Source: Nanobdellota archaeon | GTDB taxonomy: Archaea > Nanobdellota > Nanobdellia > Pacearchaeales > GW2011-AR1 | DNA length: 64,000 bases | Assembly: GCA_038045385.1 (NCBI GenBank) | Contig: JBBSYE010000002.1 | Coordinates: forward strand, 65,509-129,508 | Direction: 5' to 3' | Shown: positions 7,280 through 60,155 of the stretch, piece by piece | How the letters are laid out: each line of letters starts with the position of its first letter | How positions within the stretch are numbered: position 1 is the stretch's first letter | Notes under the pieces: model-generated | What the model saw: the letters and a program-made list of their open reading frames with translations, nothing else | Databases searched by the model: none | What the model was told of the DNA's origin: nothing | Program-made: the position numbers and the translations under genes

Positions 7280-7400
7280 TGAGCCCGCCAGGATTTGAAC
7301 CTGGGACCTCCGCCTCTCTTAGATTTCTCTATGAGAGTTTCGCCCTAACGGACAATTATCCTATAAGAGCGGCGCACTAACCGGGCTGTGCTACGGGCTC
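7280..7400 (-). tRNA. tRNA-Ile (anticodon UAU) with a 46-nt intron (7316-7361) at canonical position 37/38
   Basis: Acceptor GAGCCCG/CGGGCTC; D arm GCAC-AGCCCGGTTA-GTGC; anticodon stem CCGCT/GGCGG; loop CTTATA|intron|A; T arm CCAGG-TTCAAAT-CCTGG. The junctions fold as bulge(TAG)-4 bp helix(CTTA/TAAG)-bulge(AGA). Confidence 0.75.
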
Positions 7401-34276: not shown

Positions 34277-34297
34277 CCCTCTTTGCTCACAATATTT

Positions 34298-36076
34298 ATG
34301 GATGATAAAAAGCATTCAACTTTAGGAAGTCATATGACTCCTGGAGGAGATTATGTTCCATCTAGCCAATTGCCAGCTACCCAGACAGCGAGTGCTGATA
34401 TGGGCAAGCATTATGAATCATTAAAGAAGACAATTGTTAAAAAGTTTCCTTTTGTTGTTTCGCTTAGCGTTATACCTCCGCAGATGCAGAAATTATTTGA
34501 GGAAGATGAGGGATTGACTAAAGAGGAAATAGAGAGAAAGCCTGTGCATTTATTTATGGTTATCCCAGAAGAGGAATATGCAAATATTCCTAAGAAAATT
34601 AAGCCTGAGCTTTTGAAAATAATTCATGAAAGTAAAGAGAATGTTTGGGTTCATATCAAGACGCCAGTAGATGTTTGGAATTATGGGCTTGATAGCAAGT
34701 TTGACATGGTTGACGCTGTTGCGGCATCTTATCCTTTACATGATAAAGGTCTTCTTGGAGCTTTAAGAGTTGCAAATATTCATAAGACTCTTGTTTTGAG
34801 AAAATTTGAGAAATATGTTGCAAGTTACGTTGTTGGCGGTTCTTTAGTTAGAGGAACGGCAGATGCGGATAGCGATGTTGATACTTTTGTTATTATTGAT
34901 GATACGGATGTTAAAAAAATGCCTCGCTTGCAATTGAAGGAAAAACTTAGAGGATTTATTCAAGATTATATTCGCGAGGCCAACGCTTACGCGGGCGTTA
35001 AAAATATTTTGAATGTTCAAGTTTATTTGTTGACGGAATTTTGGGAATCCGTTAAAGATGCAAATCCGGTAATATTTACTTTTATTAGAGATGGGGTGCC
35101 TATGTACGACAGAGGGACTTTCTTGCCTTGGAAGCTTCTTTTGAAAATGGGTAAAATAAAGCCAAGTCCTGAAGCGGTTGATATGTTCATGAAATATGGG
35201 GACCAAAATGAGTCTTTGGTTAAGAGAAGAATGATTGATGGGATGATTGATATTTATTGGGGAGTTGTTACTCCAACTCAAGCGTTAATGATGCTTGCAG
35301 GAGAGGCTCCGCCTGCGCCAAAGACTCTAGTTGCCGACGTTAAAAGATTGTTTGTTGATAAAGAAAAGATTATGGCTATGCGAGAATTGAAGATTTTAGA
35401 GAAGGTTGTCAAGTATTACAAAGATCATGAACATGGAAAGCTTGAGAGCATGAAAGGCGCGGAGCTTGATATTCTTTTGAAAGAAGCTGGAGAGTACGAT
35501 AAGAAGCTAAAAGAGTTACGTAAGAAACTTGAAAAGAGAATTGTTGAGCATACTGCTGAGCGCATTTATGGAGAGGTTTTTGGAATTTTGAAAAATATGT
35601 TTGGAAATAAGAGCGATAATATTTTGATTAGTTCTTTTGAGAGAGAGCTAGTTAAATCTGGTAAGACGTCCGCTAGATTTATGCCGATTTTGAAAGCTCT
35701 TGCTAAACTCCCACAGAAAATTAAGAAGAGTGCTGTAACGCATAATGAGATTGAGCTTGTTAGACGTGAGGCGACTGAATTGTTGACTGCTATGATTGAA
35801 TTTAATCAACGTAAGGAGCTGGCTAGCTTTAGTGGAACTATAATGAAGATTGAAGGAGAGCGAGAGAAGGCTGAACTTGTTTCTACTATCGATGGAATCT
35901 TTTTACTTGCACATAAAGATGTTATGCATTTTAATGATAAGTCTTTCACTCCAAGTACTAGAGAGAAATTTGAGGTTGCTATGGAAAAAACTAAACAGCC
36001 AGTCAAGTTGATAATAAGCTCGGCTTTGACACATGCTTTGCAACAGAGATTCGGGAAATATAATTTGAGCTTTTGA
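34298..36076 (+). CDS. Large nucleotidyltransferase-domain protein with HEPN-like helical domain and a long C-terminal extension
   Basis: GGSLVRGTADADSDVDTFVIIDD NTase motif. The following region (IDIYWGVVTPTQALMMLAGEAPPAPKTL) is paralogous to 45000-45845. Confidence 0.7.
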   Translation: MDDKKHSTLGSHMTPGGDYVPSSQLPATQTASADMGKHYESLKKTIVKKFPFVVSLSVIPPQMQKLFEEDEGLTKEEIERKPVHLFMVIPEEEYANIPKKIKPELLKIIHESKENVWVHIKTPVDVWNYGLDSKFDMVDAVAASYPLHDKGLLGALRVANIHKTLVLRKFEKYVASYVVGGSLVRGTADADSDVDTFVIIDDTDVKKMPRLQLKEKLRGFIQDYIREANAYAGVKNILNVQVYLLTEFWESVKDANPVIFTFIRDGVPMYDRGTFLPWKLLLKMGKIKPSPEAVDMFMKYGDQNESLVKRRMIDGMIDIYWGVVTPTQALMMLAGEAPPAPKTLVADVKRLFVDKEKIMAMRELKILEKVVKYYKDHEHGKLESMKGAELDILLKEAGEYDKKLKELRKKLEKRIVEHTAERIYGEVFGILKNMFGNKSDNILISSFERELVKSGKTSARFMPILKALAKLPQKIKKSAVTHNEIELVRREATELLTAMIEFNQRKELASFSGTIMKIEGEREKAELVSTIDGIFLLAHKDVMHFNDKSFTPSTREKFEVAMEKTKQPVKLIISSALTHALQQRFGKYNLSF

Positions 36077-37249: not shown

Positions 37250-37606
37250 ATGAGGCGCGGTAGTGATAATGCTCGTGCTAAGGATAGAATTCGTTATTTA
37301 GGTCCGAAGGTAAGGCCGGAACCAGATTCTAATATTTGGTTTGCGAAGAATTTTGAAAGAGCATATAATGCAACTCCTGTAAATTCAAGATCTTTAGATG
37401 GAATATATTTTGCTAGAGTTTATAATATTAACGATGAGGGGAATTTAATTGCAAATAATCATGATAGATATGGTCCTGGAAAGTTAAAGGATTTGAAAGA
37501 TTTTATTGGTAATCTTGGCGATTCGCAAGTGATGGTTTTAGTTGAAGCGAGATTATCTCGTAAGGTTCGTGGTAAAAAAATTCTTGATTACATGGAGAGA
37601 GAATAA
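37250..37606 (+). CDS. Hypothetical basic protein wedged between eL33 and uL16
   Basis: The ATG begins 2 nt after the eL33 stop. Its TAA overlaps the uL16 ATG (TAATG). Confidence 0.6.
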   Translation: MRRGSDNARAKDRIRYLGPKVRPEPDSNIWFAKNFERAYNATPVNSRSLDGIYFARVYNINDEGNLIANNHDRYGPGKLKDLKDFIGNLGDSQVMVLVEARLSRKVRGKKILDYMERE

Positions 37607-38139
37607 TGGCATTACGAAAAGCATTAGCATATTCAAAGAAATACGCTCGCCCATACACTCGTGTTTCGCGAAATAAAGCAAAAGCTTACATTAAAGTATC
37701 TCCGCAGAATAAAATTGCTAAATATAATTCTGGAGATTTTGCTTCTTTTAGAGATGGTAAGTTTCCATTTCAGCTTACTTTGATTAGTGTTGTTAGGGCT
37801 CAAATTAGAGATAACGCTTTAGAGGCGGCTCGTCAGTTTCTTGTTAAAATGCTTGATGAGAAAGCATTCGGGCAATATTATCTTGAGCTTAAGGTGCATC
37901 CGCATCATCTTTTAAGAAATAATAAAACTGCTGCTGGAGCTGGAGCAGATAGAATGTCATCTGGAATGAAGCATTCTTTTGGAATTATTGAAGGACGCGC
38001 AGCTATGGTTCCTCCTGGGAAATCAATTTATTTTATTGCTTGTGCAAATGATGCTTCAACTCGCGTTGCTCGCGAAGCACTTGGAATGATCAAGTCTAAA
38101 ATTCCTGGTAAGACTGCGATAAGATTTGTGAAGGTTTAA
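37606..38139 (+). CDS. rpl10e: Ribosomal protein uL16 (L10e)
   Basis: MALRKALAYSKKYARPYTRVSR... and the family-typical LELKVHPHHLLRNNK. Confidence 0.9.
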   Translation: MALRKALAYSKKYARPYTRVSRNKAKAYIKVSPQNKIAKYNSGDFASFRDGKFPFQLTLISVVRAQIRDNALEAARQFLVKMLDEKAFGQYYLELKVHPHHLLRNNKTAAGAGADRMSSGMKHSFGIIEGRAAMVPPGKSIYFIACANDASTRVAREALGMIKSKIPGKTAIRFVKV

Positions 38140-43962: not shown

Positions 43963-43983
43963 CCTAATATTATGATAGGAAGT

Positions 43984-44829
43984 ATGACAGAAACAAGAGA
44001 AGTGGCGAAAATTGATACTTTTAGAGACAAATATGCTTCAGCAAAAGAGATTGAAGAGCTTATGAGGGGAAGCGATACAAGAGCAGAGCCTGAGCCTGAC
44101 AAAAGAAGGGCGAATTTACTTAGTCTTTTGAATGTTGGATACAATCATGGAATTAACGTTCCAGGTATGATTGATCCCGCGAGACATCCGAGGGTTTCTG
44201 ATTTAGACTTATCAGACAATGATAATCCTCATGTTCAATTATACCGAGTGGCTGCTGATAGTAAAAGGAACACTTCAGATGAAGATGCAAGCAAATACTT
44301 TTTTGCTAACTCTGGAGAGCTAATTGGGCAGATGAATGATGAATCTACTGGGAAGATTGTAGATAATCCTGAAATGCGAAAAAGATTGTCTGGAGAATTA
44401 CAAGCTTGGTATGCGGGTTATGAACAAGTAAATAAAAGCATTATGCAGGCGAAAGGGCTTGAAGCTACTGTTAAATCTGGAGGCAATGTTCCAAAGGAAT
44501 TGCGTGAGCCATTTATAGCAAAAGTTGCAGATGAGAATGCAAGAAAAACTATTGAACATTATAAAAGTAAAGGATTTAGCGAAGAATTACAAGCTGAAGC
44601 TGGAAAGATTGCGAAGATTGCCGCGTCTATTGCAACATATACTCCTGAAGATTTTGTTCCTGCTGCCGAAGCATTAGTAAAGGATAGAGAGAATGCTCTT
44701 GAAGAATTTACTAGAGAAACTATGAGTCCTAGAAATTATGTAATTGCAGGGCTTAATGAATTGGCTGGAAGTGAAGATGGAGTTACTAGGGCATTAGCTA
44801 GAGATTTAGTTTATGCGGCAACTGATTAA
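43984..44829 (+). CDS. Hypothetical protein (281 aa, helical, acidic)
   Basis: ORF with a correctly spaced promoter. No family recognised. Confidence 0.6.
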   Translation: MTETREVAKIDTFRDKYASAKEIEELMRGSDTRAEPEPDKRRANLLSLLNVGYNHGINVPGMIDPARHPRVSDLDLSDNDNPHVQLYRVAADSKRNTSDEDASKYFFANSGELIGQMNDESTGKIVDNPEMRKRLSGELQAWYAGYEQVNKSIMQAKGLEATVKSGGNVPKELREPFIAKVADENARKTIEHYKSKGFSEELQAEAGKIAKIAASIATYTPEDFVPAAEALVKDRENALEEFTRETMSPRNYVIAGLNELAGSEDGVTRALARDLVYAATD

Positions 44830-44999: not shown

Positions 45000-45845
45000 T
45001 TATTTCTTAACAATTAAAGAATCTATAACTTCAGTCATTTTTTTCACAAAATTTTCAGCGCGTTCTTGCCACAAGTCTATTTCAGCGCCGTGTATCTTTG
45101 TAATTTTGCCGTGAATTATGTCTTTGTGCATGGCGAAGACTTGGCGATACCAGTTTACGTAGTCTAACTTAAGCATGCCTTTATCGACGAAATGTTCTTT
45201 CATAAGTTCTGAAACGTGTTCTGGTGAGGGCGGAAGAAGATTGGCCATTATTAGTGCGGCTTGAGCGGAATCAACCATTGCCCAATAAATCCCTTCAATA
45301 GAACCGAGTTGAGCCATTCTGCTTCTTGCTAAATGAGTTGGCGCTCTTTGTAATGCTTCGTAGACTGCTTCTGGAGTTGGATTTATTCTGCCTTGAACTA
45401 ATAATGCTTTGAGGGGATTGAAGAATCCGTTATCAATTAGAGCTTCGCCATAACGAACTATATTTAGAACGACTGGATCGCCATGCATTAAATCTTGCCA
45501 CCAAGTTGTTAGCTTTATTGTATTGACGTGTAAATCTCTTGAATAGCTTTTAGTGCTTACTAGTCTTCCTAGTTCTTCGCGATACCATGCCGTTAACTCG
45601 AGATCCCAATTTATTGAGGCATCATCGATTATTATTATCACATCAATGTCTGACGCTGACGTAGCGGTGTTTTTTGCTTGAGAGCCGAATAGGACTGTTG
45701 CTTTTACTATATTATCGAATCTTTTATGAACTGATGAGGCAAAGTCTAGGGCTATATCGCGTTCTGAAGTGAGCTTAGGCTGGGAAAGTGGTTTTTTAGT
45801 TATTTTTACCTTCGGCTTGCTATGTCTTATTGAGCTAGAAATCAT
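45000..45845 (-). CDS. Nucleotidyltransferase-domain protein with HEPN-like C-terminal domain
   Basis: VLFGSQAKNTATSASDIDVIIIIDD. IEGIYWAMVDSAQAALIMANLLPPSPEHV is paralogous to 34298-36076. Confidence 0.7.
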   Translation of the reverse strand: MISSSIRHSKPKVKITKKPLSQPKLTSERDIALDFASSVHKRFDNIVKATVLFGSQAKNTATSASDIDVIIIIDDASINWDLELTAWYREELGRLVSTKSYSRDLHVNTIKLTTWWQDLMHGDPVVLNIVRYGEALIDNGFFNPLKALLVQGRINPTPEAVYEALQRAPTHLARSRMAQLGSIEGIYWAMVDSAQAALIMANLLPPSPEHVSELMKEHFVDKGMLKLDYVNWYRQVFAMHKDIIHGKITKIHGAEIDLWQERAENFVKKMTEVIDSLIVKK

Positions 45846-45890: not shown

Positions 45891-46208
45891 CTACTCTTTT
45901 TCTTTGGAATGTATGAAATCAACTATCGCTTCTAGGGTTTGTCTTTCTTCCGCGTTTATTTTGACTTCACATCTATCTTCTGACTTGATTTCATGAGTAA
46001 TCTCAATCCCTGCGCCAGGATAGTTGTAAGTCACTATCATATCTGAGTCAACTTTCTTAACGCATGTATTTGTTCTTCTCATCTCTAGTAGTTTTCTTGG
46101 AATTTGGATTGTTGCAAAATCATCGAAGTTTCTTGCTTGATAAATTCCTCTCGGAGGACCATAGTAAAAAGGTTTTATTTCGGATCCTGTGCCCATTCCT
46201 CCGCCCAT
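45891..46208 (-). CDS. Hypothetical protein (105 aa; Gly-rich N-terminus MGGGMGTGSEIKPFYYGPPRG)
   Basis: ORF plus own TATA box. Confidence 0.6.
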   Translation of the reverse strand: MGGGMGTGSEIKPFYYGPPRGIYQARNFDDFATIQIPRKLLEMRRTNTCVKKVDSDMIVTYNYPGAGIEITHEIKSEDRCEVKINAEERQTLEAIVDFIHSKEKE

Positions 46209-46229
46209 ATAATTTTCTAATTTGACGGG

Positions 46230-46237
46230 TATTTAAT
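46230..46237 (-). promoter_or_regulatory. TATA box (ATTAAATA)
   Basis: 21 nt upstream of the ATG at 46208. Confidence 0.5.
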
Positions 46238-46254
46238 GTTTTATATTGTCTATT

Positions 46255-48126
46255 TTATTCTGTTGGCGTGCCTGATACGCGACTTCTGCCTTGCATTTCT
46301 CCGCCTAGGGATGTTGGAAGTCCTGAGAAGCCAGCACCATAAGTTTGGAAGTGAACATCTGGTAATGTAGCGCCATAACCAGAAAAGTAGCCGTGCGTTG
46401 GAGGAGTTTTCCAATAGGATGACATTTGCATTGGATAAAGTGAAGAGTTGAACGCACTAAGAGTTTCACGGAATGGAGTCGTTTTGAAATCTGCGAACCA
46501 TCCGCCAGTTTCTACTATTTGCTTTATTTTGTTTACTTTATCTCCAAATTGCTTTCTCAACACTTCTTCGTGTTCTTTTATTGGAACATTTCCCATTCCC
46601 ATTGGTAATTCTGTATGTGCAAGGCCGAAATTATCGGATAAGTGAACGTGTTTGATATAAGGAGCGATAGTTTGTGTTTCTTTGACTATGTCTTTATCAT
46701 CATATCCTGATTTGCGAATCATATTGATATGGCCAACGTCCCAAGTTACTCCGATTATCTCTTTTGCTTTTTTATCTGCTTCTTTTCTGGACATTCCGTC
46801 TTCTACTGCTTTATCTGAGAATTTTTTATGTGCTGCTTCAACTAGTTTCTTTATGTCTTCTGCTCTGCTTATTCCCATGCCCGCAGGGGGATTTTCAAGG
46901 CCTAATATTGGGGTTGATTTGCCGAACTCTTTATAGGCATCAAAAGCAGCGTTTGCGAAAGTTTCTGATGCCTTTTCGATTCCGAAATCTTCAAGAGCGC
47001 GATATTGTACAGGGACTCCCGCATGGTCTTTTATTGAATTAAGATTTCTTGTTGCTTTTGCTATTTCGTCTATGAAATCTTTTAGCTTTTCGGGATTTTT
47101 TTCATGTCCTTGAAGCTTTGGAACTATTTGTTCTCTAACTTCTTTCAAGGCAGTTTTTAATTTATTATTTCCTTGCTTTGTTGCGCTGTCATAGGCGTTA
47201 TTGTAGATTTCTTGTAGAGTGAGATAAGCATCTTGGGCATATTGTTTAGCGAAGCCTAATTCACTGACGGTTTGCTTTGCTAGATCTCTTTCTGTGTTAT
47301 TTGAAAATGTGTTTAGGAATTTTTCATATTCCTTTGGATCTTTTTCGGATAACTTGAAGAATTCGGGTATCTTTTCTGCAAATTCTGGATTTCTTTTTAG
47401 TCCTTCTTCATCGCGAAAACTTGTGCCTCTAACAAATGAAATTCTTGCTTGGTCAGCCAGTCTTGTTACTTGGCTTAAGGAATCAGTCCATTGTCTCTTG
47501 TTGAAATCATCTATCTGTGCTTTAGGATCAGTTATTTTATTTTGAAAATAATTTTCTTGTTGTCCCGGAATTGCGCTTAGTTTTCCCGTTTGTTCATTTA
47601 TTACTAAAAATCTTGAGCTTATTTCTTTCATTTTTCCATTTTCGTCTTTTACTTTCACTTTTGTATTGGGCTCTGGTAGGCCATTGCTAGTGTGGAAAGT
47701 TATTACGATATTGCCATTAGGGTCTAGCTGATGGCCTCTTTGAATTGAGCTTAAAACTTCGCGTTCTACTTGTTTTCTTTGAGCTTCATTCCAACCGCCT
47801 TCGCTCCAACCTGTTGCTTCAACTAGTGGAGCGTGGAATGTTAGTTCTGCCCCTGATAATTTTTTTAGTCTTTCTATTTCTTTGAAGTGCTGTTTTGGAA
47901 TGTAGTCAATTAAGCCCATCGGGCCTTCGCCTTTTGCTATGTTCACTCCGGATACTTCGATGACTTTTGCTCCAGTGTTTAGCTTTTTTGAAACTGCATC
48001 AATCTGGTTTGCAGTTCTTGGGTCTGAAGGAAATCCGAAAGAGCTTGCAGGTAAGGTATATCCAGTAAAGTTATCACCGTAACTGGAGATTTTTTTATCG
48101 TAAAAATTGTGTGAGTAATCAGCCAT
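46255..48126 (-). CDS. Endonuclease IV / xylose-isomerase-like TIM-barrel protein split by a ~270-aa helical insertion, with a G/Y/S-rich tail
   Basis: Motif series in EndoIV order: ELTFHAPLVE, ITFHTSNG, [insertion], LGLENPPAGMG, VTWDVGHINM, HVHLSDNFGLAHTELPMGMGNVP. Confidence 0.55.
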   Translation of the reverse strand: MADYSHNFYDKKISSYGDNFTGYTLPASSFGFPSDPRTANQIDAVSKKLNTGAKVIEVSGVNIAKGEGPMGLIDYIPKQHFKEIERLKKLSGAELTFHAPLVEATGWSEGGWNEAQRKQVEREVLSSIQRGHQLDPNGNIVITFHTSNGLPEPNTKVKVKDENGKMKEISSRFLVINEQTGKLSAIPGQQENYFQNKITDPKAQIDDFNKRQWTDSLSQVTRLADQARISFVRGTSFRDEEGLKRNPEFAEKIPEFFKLSEKDPKEYEKFLNTFSNNTERDLAKQTVSELGFAKQYAQDAYLTLQEIYNNAYDSATKQGNNKLKTALKEVREQIVPKLQGHEKNPEKLKDFIDEIAKATRNLNSIKDHAGVPVQYRALEDFGIEKASETFANAAFDAYKEFGKSTPILGLENPPAGMGISRAEDIKKLVEAAHKKFSDKAVEDGMSRKEADKKAKEIIGVTWDVGHINMIRKSGYDDKDIVKETQTIAPYIKHVHLSDNFGLAHTELPMGMGNVPIKEHEEVLRKQFGDKVNKIKQIVETGGWFADFKTTPFRETLSAFNSSLYPMQMSSYWKTPPTHGYFSGYGATLPDVHFQTYGAGFSGLPTSLGGEMQGRSRVSGTPTE

Positions 48127-48147
48127 ACTACTTCAGAGGGATGTATT

Positions 48148-48155
48148 TATTTAAA
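48148..48155 (-). promoter_or_regulatory. TATA box (TTTAAATA)
   Basis: 21 nt upstream of the ATG at 48126. Confidence 0.55.
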
Positions 48156-48158
48156 CCT

Positions 48159-48710
48159 TCACCAGAGGGATTTTTTCTTCTTTCTTTCGTCAGCTAAACT
48201 TGGGGTGTAAGTTTCTTTTCTTTCTGTTGAAAATTCGTGTTCTCTTGCTTTTTCGGCTTGTCTTTCTTCTCGAGTTCCTTGGGCTATAGTCGGCGCTTTA
48301 TTATCTTCTTGCTTTTTTGATTCATAAGTTAAGCCATCTTTTTTGCCTGTGGTTGGGCCATAGGTTGTTGCTCTTGCTCCATCATACGAATTTTTTCTTT
48401 CTTCTCTATCTTCTGATTTTTCTCTTCTTTCTTCGGAGAGTCTTGGAGTTTCTCTAGTAGTTACTTGCTCTAGATTTGAAGTTTTGCCTTCTTTTTTGAC
48501 ATTTATTTGCATTTGTTGTCTTTCTAGTGCGCCGGCTCGCATTCTTTTAATTATCTCAAGTTTTTGTTCTAGAGTTAATTCTTGTTCTTCTTCCTTTTCT
48601 GCTTCTTTCTCGATTATTTTAATTTTGCTTTGCTTTTCTCTAAGGATTATTTTATTTTCTTTTGTAAATTCTTTAGATTTATTTTGAATTTCTTTAATTA
48701 TTCTTTTCAT
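48159..48710 (-). CDS. K/E/R-rich low-complexity / coiled-coil protein (183 aa)
   Basis: ORF. Its start abuts the stop of the 503-aa gene (1-nt gap). Confidence 0.55.
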   Translation of the reverse strand: MKRIIKEIQNKSKEFTKENKIILREKQSKIKIIEKEAEKEEEQELTLEQKLEIIKRMRAGALERQQMQINVKKEGKTSNLEQVTTRETPRLSEERREKSEDREERKNSYDGARATTYGPTTGKKDGLTYESKKQEDNKAPTIAQGTREERQAEKAREHEFSTERKETYTPSLADERKKKKSLW

Positions 48711-48711
48711 T

Positions 48712-50223
48712 TTATGGCCAAGCGGGCATCATATGTGCTTTTTTATAAGTGTCAAATAGAGTTCTACATTTTTCTGAAGAGTCAATCACGACTTGGGAGC
48801 GAATTATTTTTTCAAATGCGTCATCTTTCCTTATTCCTCTTGATAAATCTTCTTTCTCAGGCTCTACTTTTTCAGTTTTAAAGAAAGAACCGAATCCAGA
48901 AAATAAGGCTGAAAATGGATTGCTATCATCTGCCTTTTCTTCTTTCTCGTTTTTTGTTTTTTTGTCTGCAATAAACATTTCAATATCTTCTCTTATCTGT
49001 CCTATGCTTTCGTTTGTTGAACCTTCAATTAAACTTAGAATATCCCCAAAGTTACTTTTTTTAGATTCCTCTTTAAAGATTTCAATCTCTTGTTCGTTTA
49101 GAGCGTAAGAAGTGAATACGATTTCAGTTCTTCCTCCATATGAGTAACCTTGCCCGACTCTTTGAGGGATTCCTCTAAAGTTCAAGTCTATAGCAACAAC
49201 AGAATAGTATTTTCTTGTTTTTACTTTTGAGAAACTTGAGGGGAGATTGCCTGCATCTACGTCATCATTTGGATCGTAGCCACTCTGACAAAGAAGAGAT
49301 AATTCTAGAATGATTGTATTGAAAGTATTTACAAGTGCAGCAGATGGCTCTATATTTTGTTCAAGGCGATTTGCTGATTTTAGATAGGGAGTAATCCATC
49401 TTGAGTATAATTGAATGTTATTATACTGACTTTTGAGATATTGCCTTTCGATTTCATATCTTTTTCTCATTTCTGTTTCTGATTCTCTTAACCAGCGATT
49501 AAACTCCTCTATTCTTTGTTTTACAATTCTTTTTACTCGGTCATTAAGATCTATTTTATCTACCGAATTTGCATCTTCTGCGACCATAAAAGCGTCAATT
49601 ATTGTGACATAGTCAAATTGGGCTACTAGGCCTTTGATACTTGTGTTCCCTCGCTTAATGTCTACGTTGTCCATCCAGATTTGTTTTAGAGAATAATAGG
49701 CGGCATCTTTTTTCCCCTTGTCTTTTGACTTTAGATCATCATAAAGCTCAAGTCTTATCTTGAATTCTTTTAAGTCGTATATTATATTTAGAATTGATTT
49801 TAGAACAGTGTTTACTGTTCCTAACATACTCATTGCTTTCTCTTGCATAGCCGTTGCTTTTTGACCCAGTTCGGAGAAATAGCTTGAACCTGGAGAGGCG
49901 ACGAAGTTGTCATTTATTTTATCTACTTTTTTGAACATCTTGTTTGTAAAATCAAGAATCCAGAAATATAATGGCTCAAGACTTTCGGTCATTGAATCGT
50001 AGATTATTTTGTGCTTTTCAATTGGAGTTTTGAGGGCTTTAGCGTCCATAGGGCTCATCATTGTTTTGTCTAAGTCTATCATTTCCCCTTCTACTGGCTC
50101 GGCGATTTTCATCGCCTCTTGATAACCTTTCTCTTTTATAATTGCTTTAACTTGCTCTCTAACTTTTGGGCTACAATAGACATCAGGACTGATAGTAGCT
50201 ATTAGTTTATGTATATCTGCCAT
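48712..50223 (-). CDS. Hypothetical 503-aa protein (helical N-domain, central coiled coil, beta-rich block, acidic linker)
   Basis: ORF plus TATA box. No family recognised. Confidence 0.7.
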   Translation of the reverse strand: MADIHKLIATISPDVYCSPKVREQVKAIIKEKGYQEAMKIAEPVEGEMIDLDKTMMSPMDAKALKTPIEKHKIIYDSMTESLEPLYFWILDFTNKMFKKVDKINDNFVASPGSSYFSELGQKATAMQEKAMSMLGTVNTVLKSILNIIYDLKEFKIRLELYDDLKSKDKGKKDAAYYSLKQIWMDNVDIKRGNTSIKGLVAQFDYVTIIDAFMVAEDANSVDKIDLNDRVKRIVKQRIEEFNRWLRESETEMRKRYEIERQYLKSQYNNIQLYSRWITPYLKSANRLEQNIEPSAALVNTFNTIILELSLLCQSGYDPNDDVDAGNLPSSFSKVKTRKYYSVVAIDLNFRGIPQRVGQGYSYGGRTEIVFTSYALNEQEIEIFKEESKKSNFGDILSLIEGSTNESIGQIREDIEMFIADKKTKNEKEEKADDSNPFSALFSGFGSFFKTEKVEPEKEDLSRGIRKDDAFEKIIRSQVVIDSSEKCRTLFDTYKKAHMMPAWP

Positions 50224-50247
50224 CTTTTTGCTAGGAGGTAGAGGGTT

Positions 50248-50255
50248 TATTTAAA
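50248..50255 (-). promoter_or_regulatory. TATA box (TTTAAATA)
   Basis: 24 nt upstream of the ATG at 50223. Confidence 0.5.
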
Positions 50256-50272
50256 CTATTCCTTGAGAATTA

Positions 50273-50839
50273 TTATTGTAAAATTATTCTATATTGTTCT
50301 CTTGGTTGCGAGGTAAGGGTCAGCTCACATGCTCTGCCTAAATCTTCTAGAATGCTTTTGGCTAGTCTCGATTTTGGCTTTTCTGGCTCTTGATATCTTG
50401 CATCTTTGTTTCTTTCTGTAATGTTAATTGAAATTTCGCCATCCCTTGCTTTTAATTTGCCCCAATGAGCAGGAGGATAGCTAGATGCTTTGACGTGGCT
50501 TTCAAATTCCCTATATAATCTGGACATTACTTCTTCGGAGTTTGATAGGCCATGAAACATGTAGCCTTCAAATCTAGCTTTTAGATAAGGATGAAATTTC
50601 CCTTCTTTCCCAATGTTTAATTCTTCTACTTTTGCTTCTTTTGCATCCCTTGCGTAAGTAATAAGAGTTCTCCAAAAGTTTGTTGTAAAGTCTTCCTTTA
50701 CTAGAGATATCCTTGTTCTCTTTTCTCTTTCTGATAATCTGTTGAATTTTGCTGAGTCTTCCTTAAATTGAGAACATAGACTTTGACTATAGAAAATCAT
50801 AAACCTTGTTGTTGGTTTGAATTCAGGGAATGAGGCCAT
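50273..50839 (-). CDS. Hypothetical protein (188 aa)
   Basis: ORF plus TATA box. No family recognised. Confidence 0.65.
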   Translation of the reverse strand: MASFPEFKPTTRFMIFYSQSLCSQFKEDSAKFNRLSEREKRTRISLVKEDFTTNFWRTLITYARDAKEAKVEELNIGKEGKFHPYLKARFEGYMFHGLSNSEEVMSRLYREFESHVKASSYPPAHWGKLKARDGEISINITERNKDARYQEPEKPKSRLAKSILEDLGRACELTLTSQPREQYRIILQ

Positions 50840-50860
50840 ATTTTTCTTATTTAGATTAGA

Positions 50861-50868
50861 TATTTAAA
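50861..50868 (-). promoter_or_regulatory. TATA box (TTTAAATA)
   Basis: 21 nt upstream of the ATG at 50839. Confidence 0.55.
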
Positions 50869-50886
50869 GATTCTTACAACGAACAT

Positions 50887-50894
50887 TTTATATA
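50887..50894 (+). promoter_or_regulatory. TATA box (TTTATATA)
   Basis: 21 nt upstream of the ATG at 50916. Divergent partner of the 50861 box. Confidence 0.55.
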
Positions 50895-50915
50895 TTTCTC
50901 GCTCTTAGGGTTAAT

Positions 50916-51278
50916 ATGGGTTTTTTTAAAAGAGGCGAGGTAGTTGACTTGACTGAATGGAAGCGCCGAGGTTTGTTAGAGATGCCTCCGGAAGAGCCTT
51001 CTTTGGGGAAGATTGACAAGAATGGAATGATTGACCTTACCGCCATTGGAGCTAGCGAACCTGCTTCTAACCCAAGTGTTTCTCCAAGTGCCGAATCTAA
51101 TGTTCCAAGTTTTGATTTTCTTGATAATCCTTCACAAACTCAATCTTCGCAACCGATTGTCCAGCAGTCGCCTTTGGAGTTAAATGAACTAAAATTAAAG
51201 CTGGATGATACAATGTTTAAGCTGGATTTGATGCTTGAAAAGATTAAGAATATTGAGAGCCGATTGGGGATAGGATGA
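50916..51278 (+). CDS. Hypothetical protein (120 aa): MGFFKRG N-terminus, S/P/Q-rich linker, C-terminal coiled coil
   Basis: ORF plus TATA box. Confidence 0.6.
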   Translation: MGFFKRGEVVDLTEWKRRGLLEMPPEEPSLGKIDKNGMIDLTAIGASEPASNPSVSPSAESNVPSFDFLDNPSQTQSSQPIVQQSPLELNELKLKLDDTMFKLDLMLEKIKNIESRLGIG

Positions 51279-51289
51279 TTAAGCTTCTT

Positions 51290-51694
51290 TTATTGATTTT
51301 TGAGTCCTGTTATTAGTTTTTTTAGCTCGTCAATAGTTTGAGAGCCATCAGCCAATGTAATACTCTGCCCGTAGTAATTTAATGAGTTCCTTAAAATTCT
51401 TAATCTGTCAAATAATTGTGATAGTTCTTCATTTTTGACTATTTCTTTGAGGAAACAAGTATAGCATTCATGATTGTATATTTTGAAATTTTTGCTGATT
51501 GCTATGGCTTCTAGCAATTCTCTAGCGGAATCATAGTATAGTGAAATCTTAGAAGTTATGGTTGTTTCATTTAACGGCAATATATCTGCACTCAGTTTTT
51601 TATTTTCAGATGTTTGTCTTAACGAGTTGATAAGCTCTAAATCTATATTTGAAGGACGAGCTATTTTTTTAGCAAGGCATTCTTTCCAGTCCAT
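51290..51694 (-). CDS. HEPN-domain protein (partner of the upstream wHTH-NTase)
   Basis: 134 aa. Helical, with an LRILRNSLNYYG motif region. 1-nt overlap with the NTase gene. Confidence 0.6.
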   Translation of the reverse strand: MDWKECLAKKIARPSNIDLELINSLRQTSENKKLSADILPLNETTITSKISLYYDSARELLEAIAISKNFKIYNHECYTCFLKEIVKNEELSQLFDRLRILRNSLNYYGQSITLADGSQTIDELKKLITGLKNQ

Positions 51695-52179
51695 TATTCA
51701 ATTACCCATCCTTTTTCTATAATGGATATGAAATTTTTATTTTTTAACACGTTCTTGTAATGAATTTGAATCTTTCGGTTCAATTTCTTTTCAATCTTTT
51801 CAAAATTTATATTGCGTTTTTCAATATCTACAAATATGTCAAGGTCAGATTCTGCAGTGTTTTCAACTTTCGCTATAGAGCCAAAAAGAATAGGTTTTTT
51901 AAAAAGAAAATCTTTGCCGAATTCTTTTAGAAGATATTTTAGAGTTAGTCTCCAGTAAGCTCTTGCAAGGTCTTTAAAGAGAGAAGATTCTTTATTTGCA
52001 CGATAATAAATATAGACTCTGTCTCTTCTAGATAATAATGACTCTTGTTTTTCAGCCTCTTTTAGGAAGGTTGATGCAGTAGGGGGGGACAACTTTGATA
52101 TTCTTGCATATTCTCTTACAGAATACTCTCTATGCGTATCTTCAAAAAATGGTTTAAGTCTGTTAAATATTTCTAACAT
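51694..52179 (-). CDS. Winged-helix plus minimal nucleotidyltransferase protein
   Basis: ILFGSIAKVENTAESDLDIFVD, with an N-terminal wHTH-like segment. Confidence 0.7.
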   Translation of the reverse strand: MLEIFNRLKPFFEDTHREYSVREYARISKLSPPTASTFLKEAEKQESLLSRRDRVYIYYRANKESSLFKDLARAYWRLTLKYLLKEFGKDFLFKKPILFGSIAKVENTAESDLDIFVDIEKRNINFEKIEKKLNRKIQIHYKNVLKNKNFISIIEKGWVIE

Positions 52180-52895: not shown

Positions 52896-54563
52896 ATGAA
52901 TCTGGAAAAGTTCATTTGGGCTTATGCCTTACAGAATGCTATTGATTTTGGTAAAACTGATGCTTCCAAGATATTGCCTAAATTATTTCAACATGGGCTT
53001 GATAGAAAGGATATTGGGAAAATAATGCCTGAAATTCAGAAAGTTGTTGCGGAAGTGAATAAACTTTCTTCTGATAAAAAAGTTATTGATTTTAAGAATT
53101 ATGAGAAATTTGTTAAAGTGCATGAGCATAAAGATGGAGGGTTGCCGGAGCTTGAACATACGGGAAAAGTTGTTACTAGATTGCCTCCAGAGCCTTCAAA
53201 GTATAATCATATCGGTCACGCTCTAATTTTTATTATTCAATATCTTTATGCTAAAAAGTATAATGGAAAATGTATTTTGAGAATTGAAGATACAAATCCA
53301 GAGAAATCAAGCAAGGAGTTTTATGATGCTATGAAGGAAGACTTGAGTTGGCTTGGTATAAAATGGGATGAGGAAGTTATTGCTTCTAACGATTTGGTAA
53401 AGATGTATGGTCTTTGCGAGAAACTTTTGAATAATGGCGATGCTTTTGTTTGTTCTTGTTCGCAAGATAAAATTAAAGAGCTTCGAGAGCAGATGATTGC
53501 TTGTAGTTGCCGTTCACGCGATTCAAAAGTTAATTTAGCTGAATGGAAAATGATGCTTGATAAGAAATTTAAAGATGGAGAGAGAATTGTTCGGCTGAAA
53601 GGCGATATGGGCTCGAATAATGGCGTTATGCGAGATCCTGTTATCTTTAGAATTTCTTATGCTTCTCATTTTTTGCAAAAGAAGAAATATTGTGTTTGGC
53701 CGACTTATGATTTTGAAAATCCAGTTGAGGATTCGCTAAATGGGGTTAGCCATGTTATTAGGACCAATGAGTTTGAGTTGCGTGACGAGTTGCATAAATT
53801 CATTCAGGCTAAGTTGGGCTTGAAGAGCCCTATTGTTCGTGAGATTGGGAGATATAGAATAGCTGGCGCGGAAACACAGGGACGTGTAATTCGAGAGATG
53901 ATTGAGTCAGGTAAGATGATCGGATGGGATGATCCGCGTCTTGTGACTATTAGGGCGCTAAGAAGAAGGGGATTTTTGCCTGAAATGTTTTTTGAACTTG
54001 CGAAGGTTGTTGGATTATCAAAGTCAAGCGGACAGATTGATTTCGCTGTTTTAGAGTCTATTAATCGTAAGCTTGTTGATGCTAGCGCTAAAAGATATTT
54101 CTTTATTCAAAATCCTATTAAAATTTCGGTTGATGGCGCGCCTTCTTTAAAATGTAAAGCGCCCTTGCATCCGTCAGGAAATTTGGGATTTAGAGCCTTG
54201 AATACAAATGAGGATTTTTATATAACTAAGAAGGATTTTGATTCTTTGAATAAGAGCAAGAAGGGGAATGTAAGATTTATGCATCTACTTAATGCCTCTT
54301 TTTCTAAGGGGAAATTTGCTTTCCTTTCAGAGGAAGTTGATTCTAAATTGAAAGCGAGTTTTGTTCATTGGTTGCCTGCTTCTAAAGAGGAGAGTATTAA
54401 GACTAGGATAATGATGTCTAATGCTGAATTTATTGAGGGTTTTTTAGAGGCTGGAGCTAGTAAGCTGAAAATTGGGGAAATTGTGCAATTTGAGAGGTTT
54501 GGTTTTGTTAGGTTAGATAAGAAAAGCCATAAAGGTATGGAATTTTGGTTTACCTGTTCTTAA
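52896..54563 (+). CDS. gltX: Glutamyl-tRNA synthetase (archaeal type)
   Basis: PPEPSKYNHIGHA (HIGH), LRIEDTNPE and the archaeal N-terminal helical domain. Confidence 0.9.
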   Translation: MNLEKFIWAYALQNAIDFGKTDASKILPKLFQHGLDRKDIGKIMPEIQKVVAEVNKLSSDKKVIDFKNYEKFVKVHEHKDGGLPELEHTGKVVTRLPPEPSKYNHIGHALIFIIQYLYAKKYNGKCILRIEDTNPEKSSKEFYDAMKEDLSWLGIKWDEEVIASNDLVKMYGLCEKLLNNGDAFVCSCSQDKIKELREQMIACSCRSRDSKVNLAEWKMMLDKKFKDGERIVRLKGDMGSNNGVMRDPVIFRISYASHFLQKKKYCVWPTYDFENPVEDSLNGVSHVIRTNEFELRDELHKFIQAKLGLKSPIVREIGRYRIAGAETQGRVIREMIESGKMIGWDDPRLVTIRALRRRGFLPEMFFELAKVVGLSKSSGQIDFAVLESINRKLVDASAKRYFFIQNPIKISVDGAPSLKCKAPLHPSGNLGFRALNTNEDFYITKKDFDSLNKSKKGNVRFMHLLNASFSKGKFAFLSEEVDSKLKASFVHWLPASKEESIKTRIMMSNAEFIEGFLEAGASKLKIGEIVQFERFGFVRLDKKSHKGMEFWFTCS

Positions 54564-58077: not shown

Positions 58078-58446
58078 CTATGCATTGGCAAGACATTTCT
58101 TAATTGGTTCTATCACGTTTTTTTTAAAATCTTGGTCTTCAGGAAGTCCAGGTTTATCAAGCGCACCAGCAAGGTCTTTTAATAAAGAGCCATTTCTTCC
58201 AAGAGAAGGTCTACATCCAACTGTCCCTACAATCATCATATCTTCTGGAGAATTTTTTTCACCAATGTATGCCCAAAGTTGATAATCTATAATTAAGCTA
58301 CTTCTTACTCCAGAGCAATATTTTACACCCATTTCAAGATGAGCCTCACTTGGTCCTTCCAAATCTAAAAAGTATTTGTCTTCATCTCCAGGCTTTCGAG
58401 TAGTTTTGCCTTCCCATTTTGCTTTAACTGGAACTTTGTATTTCAT
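58078..58446 (-). CDS. Hypothetical protein (122 aa) translationally coupled to thrS
   Basis: 4-nt overlap with the thrS stop. Confidence 0.55.
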   Translation of the reverse strand: MKYKVPVKAKWEGKTTRKPGDEDKYFLDLEGPSEAHLEMGVKYCSGVRSSLIIDYQLWAYIGEKNSPEDMMIVGTVGCRPSLGRNGSLLKDLAGALDKPGLPEDQDFKKNVIEPIKKCLANA

Positions 58447-60155
58447 ACAATTAACTCTTCTTCAAGTTGCTTGATAAACTTATCTATCTTGATACCGAAT
58501 TCTGGCTTTTTGCCTCTTGGTCTTACTGCTAGTGTTTTGGAATTTTCTTCTTTATCGCCTACTACTAAAATGTAATTTACTTTCATTAGTTCTGCGTCTC
58601 TAATTTTAGCTTGAACTGTGTCGCCTCTTGAGTCTGTATCTATTTTTAATTCTGGAATTGCTTTTTTTAGCTCTTGAGCTATTTTTTCCGTAGCTTTTAT
58701 ATTTCTATCTGTAAAGCTGATGATGCGGACTTGTCTAGGTGATAGCCAGAGTGGAAGATTTCCATTTAGATGTTCTAGTAATATTCCGATAAATCTTTCT
58801 AGTGAACCGAAAATTGCGCGATGTATTACTAAAGGAGTATGCTCTTTATTATCTGCGCCAGTGTAGTTTAGCTCGAATCTTAGAGGAATTTGCATGTCTA
58901 GCTGAATTGTGCCACATTGCCAGCTTCTATTTAGAGAGTCTTTGATATGTAAATCTATTTTTGGTCCGTAGAATGCTCCGTCGCCTTTGTTTATAGTATA
59001 TTTTATTTTTGCTTTTTTTAGTTCTGCTTCAAGGGTTTTTTCTGCTTGGTTCCAGACTTCAATTTCTCCCATGAATTTTTCAGGACGTGTTGATAACGTT
59101 AACGAGTAATCGAAACCGAATGTTTTTTTGTAATAAAAGTCTATGAGTTTTAGCGCACTTGCTATTTCTGACCCTACTTGTTCGTTTGTACAGAATATAT
59201 GTGCATCGTCTTGCATGAAGCGAATCACACGGAAAAGTCCGGAAAGAACACCTGAAAGTTCCATTCTATGTAAATAGCCGAAATCTGAAAGTCTTAATGG
59301 TAAGTCTTTGTAACTTCTTGTTTTTGACTTGAATAACAACATAGCTCCTGGGCAGTTCATTGGCTTCACTCCAAAATCTCGATCTTCATATTTTGTTAGG
59401 AACATATTGTCTTTGTAATGAGTCCAATGGCCGGATACTTTCCATAATGCATTGGAGAAGATTTGAGGAGTGGCTATCTCTTGATAGTTTTCTTTTTCTT
59501 GGGCGTTTCTTGCGAATTGCATTAGTTTATTGTAAATATGCAATCCCGAGGGATACCAGAAGGTGCTTCCGGGCGCGACTTCGTTGAAATTGAATAGCTC
59601 AAGTCTTTGACCGAGAATACGATGATCGTTATCTTTTAGCTTTGAAGTGTCTAGCTTGGAAGTTGACATTTCTTTTAATAGTCTTTTTAGTTCTTCCGAA
59701 GTTATTTCTTTTTCTACGCTCTTTACTTCATTTTCTTTTGAACTTGAGAATGTTTTGCTTAGTTCTGATAGTGGATGGCCTTTTGTTTTTAATTCGAAGG
59801 TCTTATAGTAGCCGAATGGAGCTCTTGTTGTGTTGAATTTCTTCTTTAGCTCATGTTCGGCTTGCTCTAACATTTCTAACGCTATTTTAGGCGGGGCGAG
59901 ATTTGATGATAGATGGGCATAGGGATATAGAACTATATTTTTTGCTTTAACTTCCGAAGCATGTTTTTCAATTGAACTAAGTAATTGCTTTAATTCTTCT
60001 TGTGAATCGCCTTTTTCAACACTCGTGAGGACAACGAGACATTCTTTTACTTCTTGCTCTTTTTTTTCTTTATCATTAAGCTCGGGAGCGTCTTTTACAG
60101 CTTTTTTTTCAGCTTTGAATTTTATGTAATCGCAATGCAGGGATAGTGTTCGCAT
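58443..60155 (-). CDS. thrS: Threonyl-tRNA synthetase, archaeal type with N-terminal editing domain
   Basis: The N-terminal MRTLSLHCDYIKF...NIVLYPYAHLS editing domain is followed by a class II core (..FRVIRFMQDDAHIF.., GTIQLD). Confidence 0.9.
   Translation of the reverse strand: MRTLSLHCDYIKFKAEKKAVKDAPELNDKEKKEQEVKECLVVLTSVEKGDSQEELKQLLSSIEKHASEVKAKNIVLYPYAHLSSNLAPPKIALEMLEQAEHELKKKFNTTRAPFGYYKTFELKTKGHPLSELSKTFSSSKENEVKSVEKEITSEELKRLLKEMSTSKLDTSKLKDNDHRILGQRLELFNFNEVAPGSTFWYPSGLHIYNKLMQFARNAQEKENYQEIATPQIFSNALWKVSGHWTHYKDNMFLTKYEDRDFGVKPMNCPGAMLLFKSKTRSYKDLPLRLSDFGYLHRMELSGVLSGLFRVIRFMQDDAHIFCTNEQVGSEIASALKLIDFYYKKTFGFDYSLTLSTRPEKFMGEIEVWNQAEKTLEAELKKAKIKYTINKGDGAFYGPKIDLHIKDSLNRSWQCGTIQLDMQIPLRFELNYTGADNKEHTPLVIHRAIFGSLERFIGILLEHLNGNLPLWLSPRQVRIISFTDRNIKATEKIAQELKKAIPELKIDTDSRGDTVQAKIRDAELMKVNYILVVGDKEENSKTLAVRPRGKKPEFGIKIDKFIKQLEEELIV

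Follow-up and report, generated by a model that had tools for sequence, protein, structure and literature searches.

A conserved gene block of Pacearchaeota- and Woesearchaeota-type archaea centred on a 503-residue protein of no described family, with orphan genes in its gaps

Six neighbouring open reading frames (ORFs) in a 64,000-nucleotide stretch of DNA from a Nanobdellota archaeon (contig JBBSYE010000002.1, positions 65,509 to 129,508 of the forward strand, assembly GCA_038045385.1; this whole stretch is called the window) raise the question of whether they constitute an accessory, defence-related system of orphan genes or a fixed part of the chromosome. A sequence-only reading had favoured the former, describing the six as an ORFan cluster and a candidate undescribed multi-protein system. 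All six ORFs were present at the positions given by that reading, and a further gene that belongs to the question, nt281, lies just outside its coordinates:

45000-45845, minus strand: nt281, a 281-residue Pol-beta-type nucleotidyltransferase (NTase)
45891-46208, minus strand: g105, 105 residues
46255-48126, minus strand: g623, 623 residues
48159-48710, minus strand: g183, 183 residues
48712-50223, minus strand: g503, 503 residues
50273-50839, minus strand: g188, 188 residues
50916-51278, plus strand: g120, 120 residues, divergent from g503

We found that g503, g623, g183 and g120 form, with the flanking nt281, a syntenic block that is present at 82 related loci. It is highly probable that this block is lineage-wide, strongly constrained and cytoplasmic, with orphan genes inserted into it.

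The six ORFs were scored with a codon log-odds model trained on 17 long genes from the rest of the window, and the annotated frame was the top-scoring frame for all six. The lowest coding score was that of g188, about the level of a neighbouring HEPN gene, and its own frame was still the best. This check came out in favour of the ORFs and, together with the TATA boxes described below, indicates that they are real genes. GC content was unchanged across the cluster compared with the rest of the window, and Rfam and tRNA scans identified no RNA element within the cluster. A scan of the sequences identified no hydrophobic segment of the membrane-span type in any of the six proteins, which suggests that the gene products are cytoplasmic.

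Synteny was counted by tblastn of the window proteins against the 82 related loci of Pace-/Woesearchaeota type (labels L001-L084), and many of the misses in these counts were short contigs that ended too early. The arrangement at the related loci was GluRS and g120 on one strand, followed on the other by g503, a gene of about 170 residues, g623 and nt281. Among the 82 loci, g623 was found downstream of g503 in 64 and nt281 in 54, and GluRS was present in 57 and g120 in 43. The block is embedded in a longer backbone with the order L16, PPDK, a 285-residue gene, nt281, g623, g183, g503, divergent g120, GluRS and later ThrRS, which is shared by the window and three related loci (L001, L002 and L084). 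Its landmarks in the window are:

37606-38139: ribosomal protein L16
39127-42951, plus strand: PPDK, carrying a LAGLIDADG insertion
52896-54563: GluRS
58443-60155: ThrRS

The region is thus conserved chromosomal backbone of a Pacearchaeota/Woesearchaeota-type (Nanoarchaeota, DPANN) archaeon. The accessory, defence-island-like context proposed earlier did not hold, since L16, PPDK, GluRS and ThrRS make up the backbone at related loci as well; the neighbourhood is a housekeeping backbone and not a defence island. What stood of the proposed multi-gene system was a conserved and undescribed neighbourhood, with g503, g183, g623, nt281 and g120 syntenic across the 82 loci and with g188 and g105 outside the block.

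The co-directional order of g503, the disordered protein (the g183 position) and g623, then nt281, with short gaps, persisted down to 45% identity of g503. In two loci with local rearrangements (L077 and L082), nt281 and GluRS had switched sides, and g503, the disordered protein and g623 remained together. We compared the median identities of the block proteins and of GluRS in the same 33 genomes and obtained 60% for nt281, 49% for g503, 43% for g623 and 39% for GluRS. Purifying selection on the genes for g503, the disordered protein, g623 and nt281 is at least as strong as on an aminoacyl-tRNA synthetase.

At the centre of the block stands g503. More than 1793 proteins are homologous to it over the full length, with identities of 45-92%; all are unnamed or annotated as "hypothetical", and all come from metagenome-assembled genomes (MAGs) of Nanoarchaeota, Pacearchaeota or Woesearchaeota. 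When each GTDB species was represented by one genome, a relative was detected in at least 555 of these genomes, and the 80 loci with relatives that were listed carried Nanoarchaeota, Pace-/Woesearchaeota or unnamed-archaeon labels, with one exception ("Parvarchaeota"). An AlphaFold2 model built with 60 homologues (mean predicted local distance difference test score, pLDDT, 78.5) predicted a five-stranded beta sheet interrupted by a helical hairpin, laid out along the protein as follows:

N-terminus: a small helical region
Residues 69-109: a beta-alpha-beta unit
Residues 110-119: a conserved glycine-rich loop
Residues 119-164 and 228-288: a long helical insertion (the hairpin), with helices of 46 and 61 residues
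Residues 304-376: three further long strands with packing helices, including the beta strands at 339-376
Residues 421-456: a disordered acidic linker with an invariant N435-P436-F437 and a nearly invariant L440-F441-S442
C-terminus: a helix

The helix at 228-288, the strands at 339-376 and the acidic linker at 421-456 agree with the layout that had been read from the sequence. No Pfam, NCBIfam, PHROG or PADLOC match was identified for g503. A search of its profile against PDB sequences gave nothing significant (best E 0.08), and Foldseek searches with the model gave no match at E ≤ 0.001 in either PDB (best E 0.03, probability ≤0.23) or BFVD (best E 0.035). Weak Pfam matches among the 60 homologues (DUF5752 in 8 of 60, best E 0.004; Ribosomal_S8; Med22; F-BAR) were scattered and inconsistent, and we discarded them as noise. 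Neither the phage collection nor IMG/VR contained a relative, and a viral or mobile origin of g503 was rejected for that reason. The helix-grip class (START/Bet v 1/CoxG) made up about 36 of the 50 highest-ranking Foldseek matches, at probabilities ≤0.23 and target-normalised template-modelling (TM) scores ≤0.18; at most, this hints that the split domain of beta sheet and helix might be a helix-grip (SRPBCC/START-like) lipid binder that these lipid-auxotrophic symbionts would use. g503 has no recognisable fold relatives and is in no described family. With a conservation above that of a tRNA synthetase over hundreds of species, it must serve something central in this lineage.

Directly after g503 lies g183, a basic protein (isoelectric point 9.4) that is rich in K, E and R, with about 75% polar or charged residues, and is predicted to be disordered, as had been proposed before. 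In 61 of 64 loci, the space between g503 and g623 is occupied by an ORF of 155-250 residues with about 70% polar or charged residues. These proteins carry an N-terminal "(M)PKIKKIKEIPSKIKEIKE"-type, (K)IKEI-type motif in 55 of 62 loci, and in 34 of 62 they end in a basic cluster followed by W or PWE, often as "KKRRYPWEA". The window protein has both terminal motifs in diverged form ("IIKEI...SKIKIIEKE" and "ERKKKKSLW"). Matches to g183 by tblastn were confined to the close relatives L083, L084 and L003, because the complexity of these sequences is too low for BLAST to work beyond them. In two loci where g623 is not nearby (L009 and L042), the disordered-protein ORF still adjoins g503. Therefore, g183 belongs to a positional family and is not an ORFan.

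The third co-directional member, g623, was the only one of the six that could be placed in a curated family, PF01261 (AP_endonuc_2) being the sole match in the Pfam, NCBIfam, PHROGs and PADLOC scans (35.6 bits against a gathering cut-off of 31.1, E 1e-8, residues 443-525); this agrees with the earlier reading. It has more than 1182 homologues, most of which carry PF01261. The AlphaFold2 model (mean pLDDT 78.7) predicted an eight-strand (beta/alpha)8 TIM barrel, so that the earlier assignment to this fold was borne out by PF01261, the model and Foldseek. The parts that are added to the barrel are:

Residues 154-187: a beta-hairpin insert
Residues 201-404: a helical insert of about 200 residues after strand 4 (beta strand 141-145), on the active-site face
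Residues 1-24 and 560-623: Y/G/F-rich tails, predicted to be disordered yet strongly conserved

The C-terminal tail (560-623) is the G/Y/S-rich tail noticed before, and conserved tail positions are W572, G583, G585, P589, G597, P604, L607, G608 and G619. Ten residues (H98, H145, E411, D463, H466, H495, D498, H504, E506 and E539) were invariant in 48 sequences, and in the model they occupy the ends of consecutive barrel strands. The placement of such ligand-type residues at strand ends makes it very likely that the predicted metal site of g623 is intact.

The closest solved sequence relative of g623 is MJ1311 (E 1.4e-3; PDB 3wqo, 'D-tagatose 3-epimerase-like protein'). Like MJ1311 and the ketose 3-epimerases, g623 has the barrel fold and a PF01261 score, and it shares with MJ1311 the WDVGH, HVHLSDN and GxGN motifs (D-x-x-H, H-x-x-D and G-x-G-N), with D463, H466, H495 and D498 aligned to the D..H and H..D motifs of that protein. 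Foldseek ranked ketose 3-epimerases and MJ1311 first (probability 1.0, target TM about 0.6-0.67). The differences are considerable, however. g623 is twice as long, has the beta hairpin and the helical domain of about 200 residues after strand 4 as well as the conserved disordered tails at both ends, and is only 8-13% identical to the MJ1311 and epimerase structures; moreover, where MJ1311 has a D..H pair after strand 7, g623 has H504..E506. g623 is thus a member of the xylose-isomerase-like TIM-barrel superfamily that is in no characterised family there. A Cas8a1/Csx13 match on its helical insert (PADLOC E 3.6e-4, NCBIfam 1.3e-3), far under the 47-bit cut-off, was judged to be compositional, arising from helical K/E-rich segments.

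The most conserved member of the block is nt281, which directly follows g623 in most loci at 54-76% identity. It matched PF01909 and PF18765, and its helical C-terminal domain is HEPN-like or KNTase-C-like. The motif G54 S55 ... D66 x D68 is invariant, and one homologue matched a HEPN model. In a search of its profile against PDB, minimal NTases were the only matches (E about 1e-3). nt281 resembles the MntA-HepT and KNTase-like proteins in its Pol-beta NTase core (G-S ... D-x-D) and in its helical C-terminal domain, but unlike the accessory MntA-HepT pair it is a single fused protein that is positionally fixed at about 60% identity. Its score against the MntA family was 29.5 bits, compared with a cut-off of 60 bits, and no clear Rx4-6H motif was found among the invariant columns of the C-terminal domain. 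On the grounds of the fusion, the score below the cut-off, the lack of Rx4-6H and the core-gene distribution, an assignment to the MntA/HepT type VII toxin-antitoxin systems was rejected. nt281 belongs to the Pol-beta NTase superfamily and falls outside the MntA family.

On the other side of the block, g120 is a small acidic protein whose homologues, identified in 43-48 related loci, mostly lie between g503 and GluRS. Its N-terminus is conserved (MGxFKK..vIDLT.LQKRGlL), its middle part is disordered and contains an FDFL motif, and it ends in a coiled coil that resembles trimeric coiled coils. Its profile gave weak matches to generic coiled coils only in Pfam and PDB, and no family. The N-terminal motif of g120 homologues (residues 13-44, vIDLT.LQKRGlLK) also repeatedly matched, at low significance (E 0.035-0.4), the C-terminal region of yeast Rrp6 that binds the exosome, a resemblance that is probably due to chance. 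The Pfam, NCBIfam, PHROGs and PADLOC scans placed none of g503, g183 and g120 in a well-characterised family, as had been anticipated, and g503, the disordered protein and g120 are in no described family.

The remaining two genes behave differently. For g188, the match to itself was the only one among 1.84 billion representative proteins, and tblastn detected nothing in 84 related loci, including genomes whose g503 is 92%, 69% or 68% identical. Its slot between g120 and g503 holds a methyltransferase in L083, an unrelated 214-residue ORF in L084, a phosphatase (His_Phos_1) in L002, and is empty in L003. The only relative of g105, 67% identical and in the same slot between g623 and nt281, belongs to a sister species whose g623 is 92% identical; g105 was absent from the remaining related loci searched. 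Hence g188 is a true orphan and g105 a near-orphan, and both are outside the conserved block. The ORFan label that had been applied to the whole cluster therefore stands for g188 and nearly for g105, and fails for g503, g623, g183 and g120, which have homologues or a positional family.

A third insertion lies between g120 and GluRS:

51290-52179, minus strand: a HEPN-like gene (134 residues) and a minimal NTase gene (MNT, 161 residues) with a one-base overlap

PF01909 was identified in the 161-residue protein, and the pair matched the PADLOC candidate models PDC-M05A (9e-11) and PDC-M05B (6e-6). No counterpart was found in the closest relatives L083, L084 and L003, and the pair looks like a toxin-antitoxin-type cassette inserted at this site. 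Of the two flanking NTase-HEPN genes that had been considered accessory, this pair is accessory, and nt281 belongs to the conserved block. Because g188 and g105 are nearly absent from relatives and the contents of the gaps differ between close relatives, these two genes, like the HEPN/MNT pair, are strain- or species-level insertions into intergenic gaps.

We further examined the promoters of the cluster. The box spacings noted from the sequence were all confirmed, four of them at 21 nt, that of g503 at 24 nt, and none for g183:

46230-46237, minus strand: TATA box of g105, 21 nt before the ATG
48148-48155, minus strand: TATA box TTTAAATA of g623, 21 nt before the ATG
50248-50255, minus strand: TATA box TTTAAATA of g503, 24 nt before the ATG
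50861-50868, minus strand: TATA box of g188, 21 nt before the ATG
50887-50894, plus strand: TATA box TTTATATA of g120, 21 nt before the ATG

The boxes of g105, g623 and g188 read ATTAAATA or TTTAAATA. In the window, g183 has no TATA box, and it starts 1 nt past the g503 stop (TAA-A-ATG). Boxes of the strict form were found 15-30 nt upstream of 12 of the 58 window genes, compared with 0.4% of random positions, and the exact 21-nt spacing occurs in five window genes, all inside one 9-kb stretch (45.8-54.6 kb). At the related loci, 40 of 62 g623 homologues are preceded by a TATA box of their own, and the spacing is 21 nt for 30 of 62 g623 homologues, 33 of 40 g120 homologues and 33 of 58 GluRS genes. 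This spacing, shared by g623, g120 and GluRS and kept across dozens of related genomes, points to leaderless mRNAs with a fixed geometry. The cluster genes are largely under their own promoters, and from archaeal promoter geometry we infer that their mRNAs are probably leaderless.

Based on these results, we propose that g503, the disordered protein, g623 and nt281 might cooperate in the cytoplasm as a housekeeping module. In this model, g503 would be an oligomeric scaffold, assembled via its coiled-coil hairpin and equipped with the beta-sheet domain and the flexible NPF/LFS linker. The basic disordered protein, made together with g503, would serve as an adaptor, its conserved terminal motifs bridging the partners. 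Catalysis would fall to g623, a metal-dependent TIM barrel of the superfamily of endonuclease IV (EndoIV) and the ketose epimerases, whose helical insert of about 200 residues may form a lid over the active-site face and whose disordered aromatic/glycine tails would dock onto partners. Its substrate could be a sugar or sugar-phosphate group that is free or part of a nucleotide or nucleic acid, and nt281 would add or remove a nucleotidyl group on that substrate or on one of the proteins. The arrangement of scaffold, adaptor and enzyme fits the tight g503-g183 junction and the survival of this pair without a nearby g623 (in L009 and L042), and it fits the conserved end motifs of the disordered protein, whose sequence otherwise evolves freely, the tails of g623 and the linker peptide of g503.

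Several observations weigh against such cooperation. In some loci (L023, L032, L033, L035, L009 and L042), g503 stands alone or with the disordered protein only, and in one MAG the locus tags of g503 (AABX73_02415) and g623 (AABX73_04085) are far apart. Synteny extends over the whole neighbourhood, GluRS and PPDK included, so that the adjacency within the block could be inherited order and not functional linkage. Because a separate TATA box at leaderless distance precedes g623, g120 and, in many cases, the disordered protein, these genes are frequently individual transcription units and not one operon. As for the enzyme, the Foldseek E-values of g623 to the epimerases are only about 1e-3, and hhalign of g623 against E. 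coli EndoIV was not significant (E 0.07, probability <1%). We put forward the interaction model as a tentative and rather doubtful one; when it is taken as a single claim with the description of the block, the balance tips slightly in favour.

The main rival is that of inherited gene order, in which the block genes would be unrelated lineage-specific housekeeping genes kept together by a stable gene order, like GluRS, PPDK and L16. GluRS adjoins the block about as often as g623 does (57 versus 64 of the 82 loci), many genomes have individual TATA boxes at leaderless distance, and both the loci without a nearby g623 and the MAG with separated locus tags point the same way. On the other hand, the order of g503, the disordered protein and g623 with its short gaps holds to 45% identity of g503, these three stay together after the rearrangements in L077 and L082, and g183 of the window begins 1 nt past the g503 stop with no promoter of its own. 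We consider inherited order alone a serious possibility, well short of an even one.

A more specific alternative is a DNA-repair module, in which g623 would be an EndoIV-type apurinic/apyrimidinic (AP) endonuclease or 3'-repair diesterase, g503 and the disordered protein would handle DNA and nt281 would process ends. g623 lies in the same AP_endonuc_2 superfamily as EndoIV (Nfo, PDB 1qtw/1qum), EndoIV structures are among its Foldseek matches, and motif comparison places invariant residues that could act as metal ligands at the ends of strands 3-8 of g623, in the order of the nine ligands of Nfo. The nine ligands of the trinuclear metal site of Nfo are H69, H109, E145, D179, H182, H216, D229, H231 and E261; by strand order in the AlphaFold2 model, their candidate equivalents in g623 are H98, H145, E411, D463, H466, H495, H504, E506 and E539, with H in place of D229 and E in place of H231. 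The equivalence is a motif comparison only, because hhalign was not significant, and the alignment backs it in the C-terminal half only (the Nfo sequence was verified against 1qtw). hhalign was run twice, with the whole alignment and with the insert removed; neither run was significant, and the N-terminal half was mis-registered. Moreover, no nfo match was found among the NCBIfam endonuclease IV models at E ≤ 1, Foldseek placed EndoIV (probability 0.91-0.95, E 0.045) below the epimerases, g623 differs from Nfo by its large inserts, its composition contains no clearly basic part, and no other repair genes are adjacent to the block. Because hhalign was non-significant both ways, the EndoIV assignment was not adopted.

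The literature on MJ1311 bears on both sides of this alternative. MJ1311 has been listed as a predicted EndoIV homologue of M. jannaschii (PMC2770678) and is named D-tagatose 3-epimerase-like in its PDB entry, and the EndoIV-like Pyrococcus protein PF1383 lacks AP endonuclease activity (PMC2770678). Given the conflict of names and the inactivity of PF1383, the chemistry of g623 could be of either kind and may be phosphodiester cleavage or sugar isomerisation or epimerisation. A nucleic-acid-directed role, as suggested by the sequence-only reading, may apply solely via this ambiguity between EndoIV-like and sugar-epimerase-like features. Altogether, we regard the repair module as unlikely.

Still less probable, in our view, is that g503 is a new-fold self-assembling shell or lattice protein of a hitherto unknown protein compartment or condensate found in Pace-/Woesearchaeota alone, with the disordered protein as a CsoS2-like scaffold and g623 recruited by its tails. 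In such a compartment, the KIKEI N-terminal amphipathic motif would bind g503, and the C-terminal KRRYPWE would bind cargo. The idea of an accessory anti-virus defence or mobile multi-protein system of orphan genes, which could draw on the adjoining MNT/HEPN-like pair with its PADLOC candidate-model match and on the orphans g188 and g105 in variable slots, has next to nothing left in its favour and is excluded for the core genes, as these occur in hundreds of species at fixed positions among housekeeping genes, g503, nt281 and g623 are more conserved than GluRS, none of the six has a PADLOC match at a meaningful score (the best being the Cas8a match on the g623 insert, the others E ≥ 0.04), relatives are missing from the phage and IMG/VR collections, and the GC content is level with the rest of the window.

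We found no description of the block in the literature. Castelle et al. (2021) reported a module 98 of 51 protein families, most of them without a known function, that Pacearchaeota and Woesearchaeota have in common (PMC8204110). The block resembles module 98 in its taxonomic distribution and in consisting of lineage-specific conserved unknowns; membership of g503, g623, g120 and nt281 could not be confirmed, as the supplements contained no matching term, and the paper describes neither this gene block nor any structure. Pacearchaeota and Woesearchaeota are abundant, uncultivated and ultra-small, and hardly anything is known about the cell biology of these archaea. The block offers concrete, clonable targets for a lineage-defining function and corrects an annotation as a defence island of orphans. 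Every known family tested as an account of it failed. We consider this lineage-defining set of unknowns centred on g503 moderately interesting, mainly for DPANN specialists and as an experimental target.

The backbone around the block contains one fast-evolving gene:

43972-44829, plus strand: the 285-residue gene, convergent with nt281

Its counterparts are located at 13332-14186 in L084, 12999-13847 in L001 and 12803-13549 in L002, with sizes of 282, 248 and 284 residues. Identity to the L084 counterpart is 29%, compared with 76% for the adjoining nt281, and no family match was found for it.

Further from the block, a third NTase-type gene of the window encodes a 597-residue protein (34283-36076, plus strand) in which a Pol-beta NTase domain (residues 173-223) was the only domain recognised. 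A giant ORF of 3142 residues (12275-21703, plus strand) has bacterial Ig-like domains at about residues 1958-2045 as its only Pfam matches, and no lytic transglycosylase domain was detected in it; giant surface proteins are reported to be typical of Pace- and Woesearchaeota (PMC8204110). An Rfam tRNA match at 7280-7400 on the minus strand (121 nt, 55.7 bits), which has no ARAGORN call, fits an intron-containing archaeal tRNA. PPDK is 1274 residues long in the window, compared with about 830-900 residues in related genomes. Its LAGLIDADG-like domain is located at residues 645-703, between the PPDK_N and PEP-utilizers domains, and the insertion is probably an intein.

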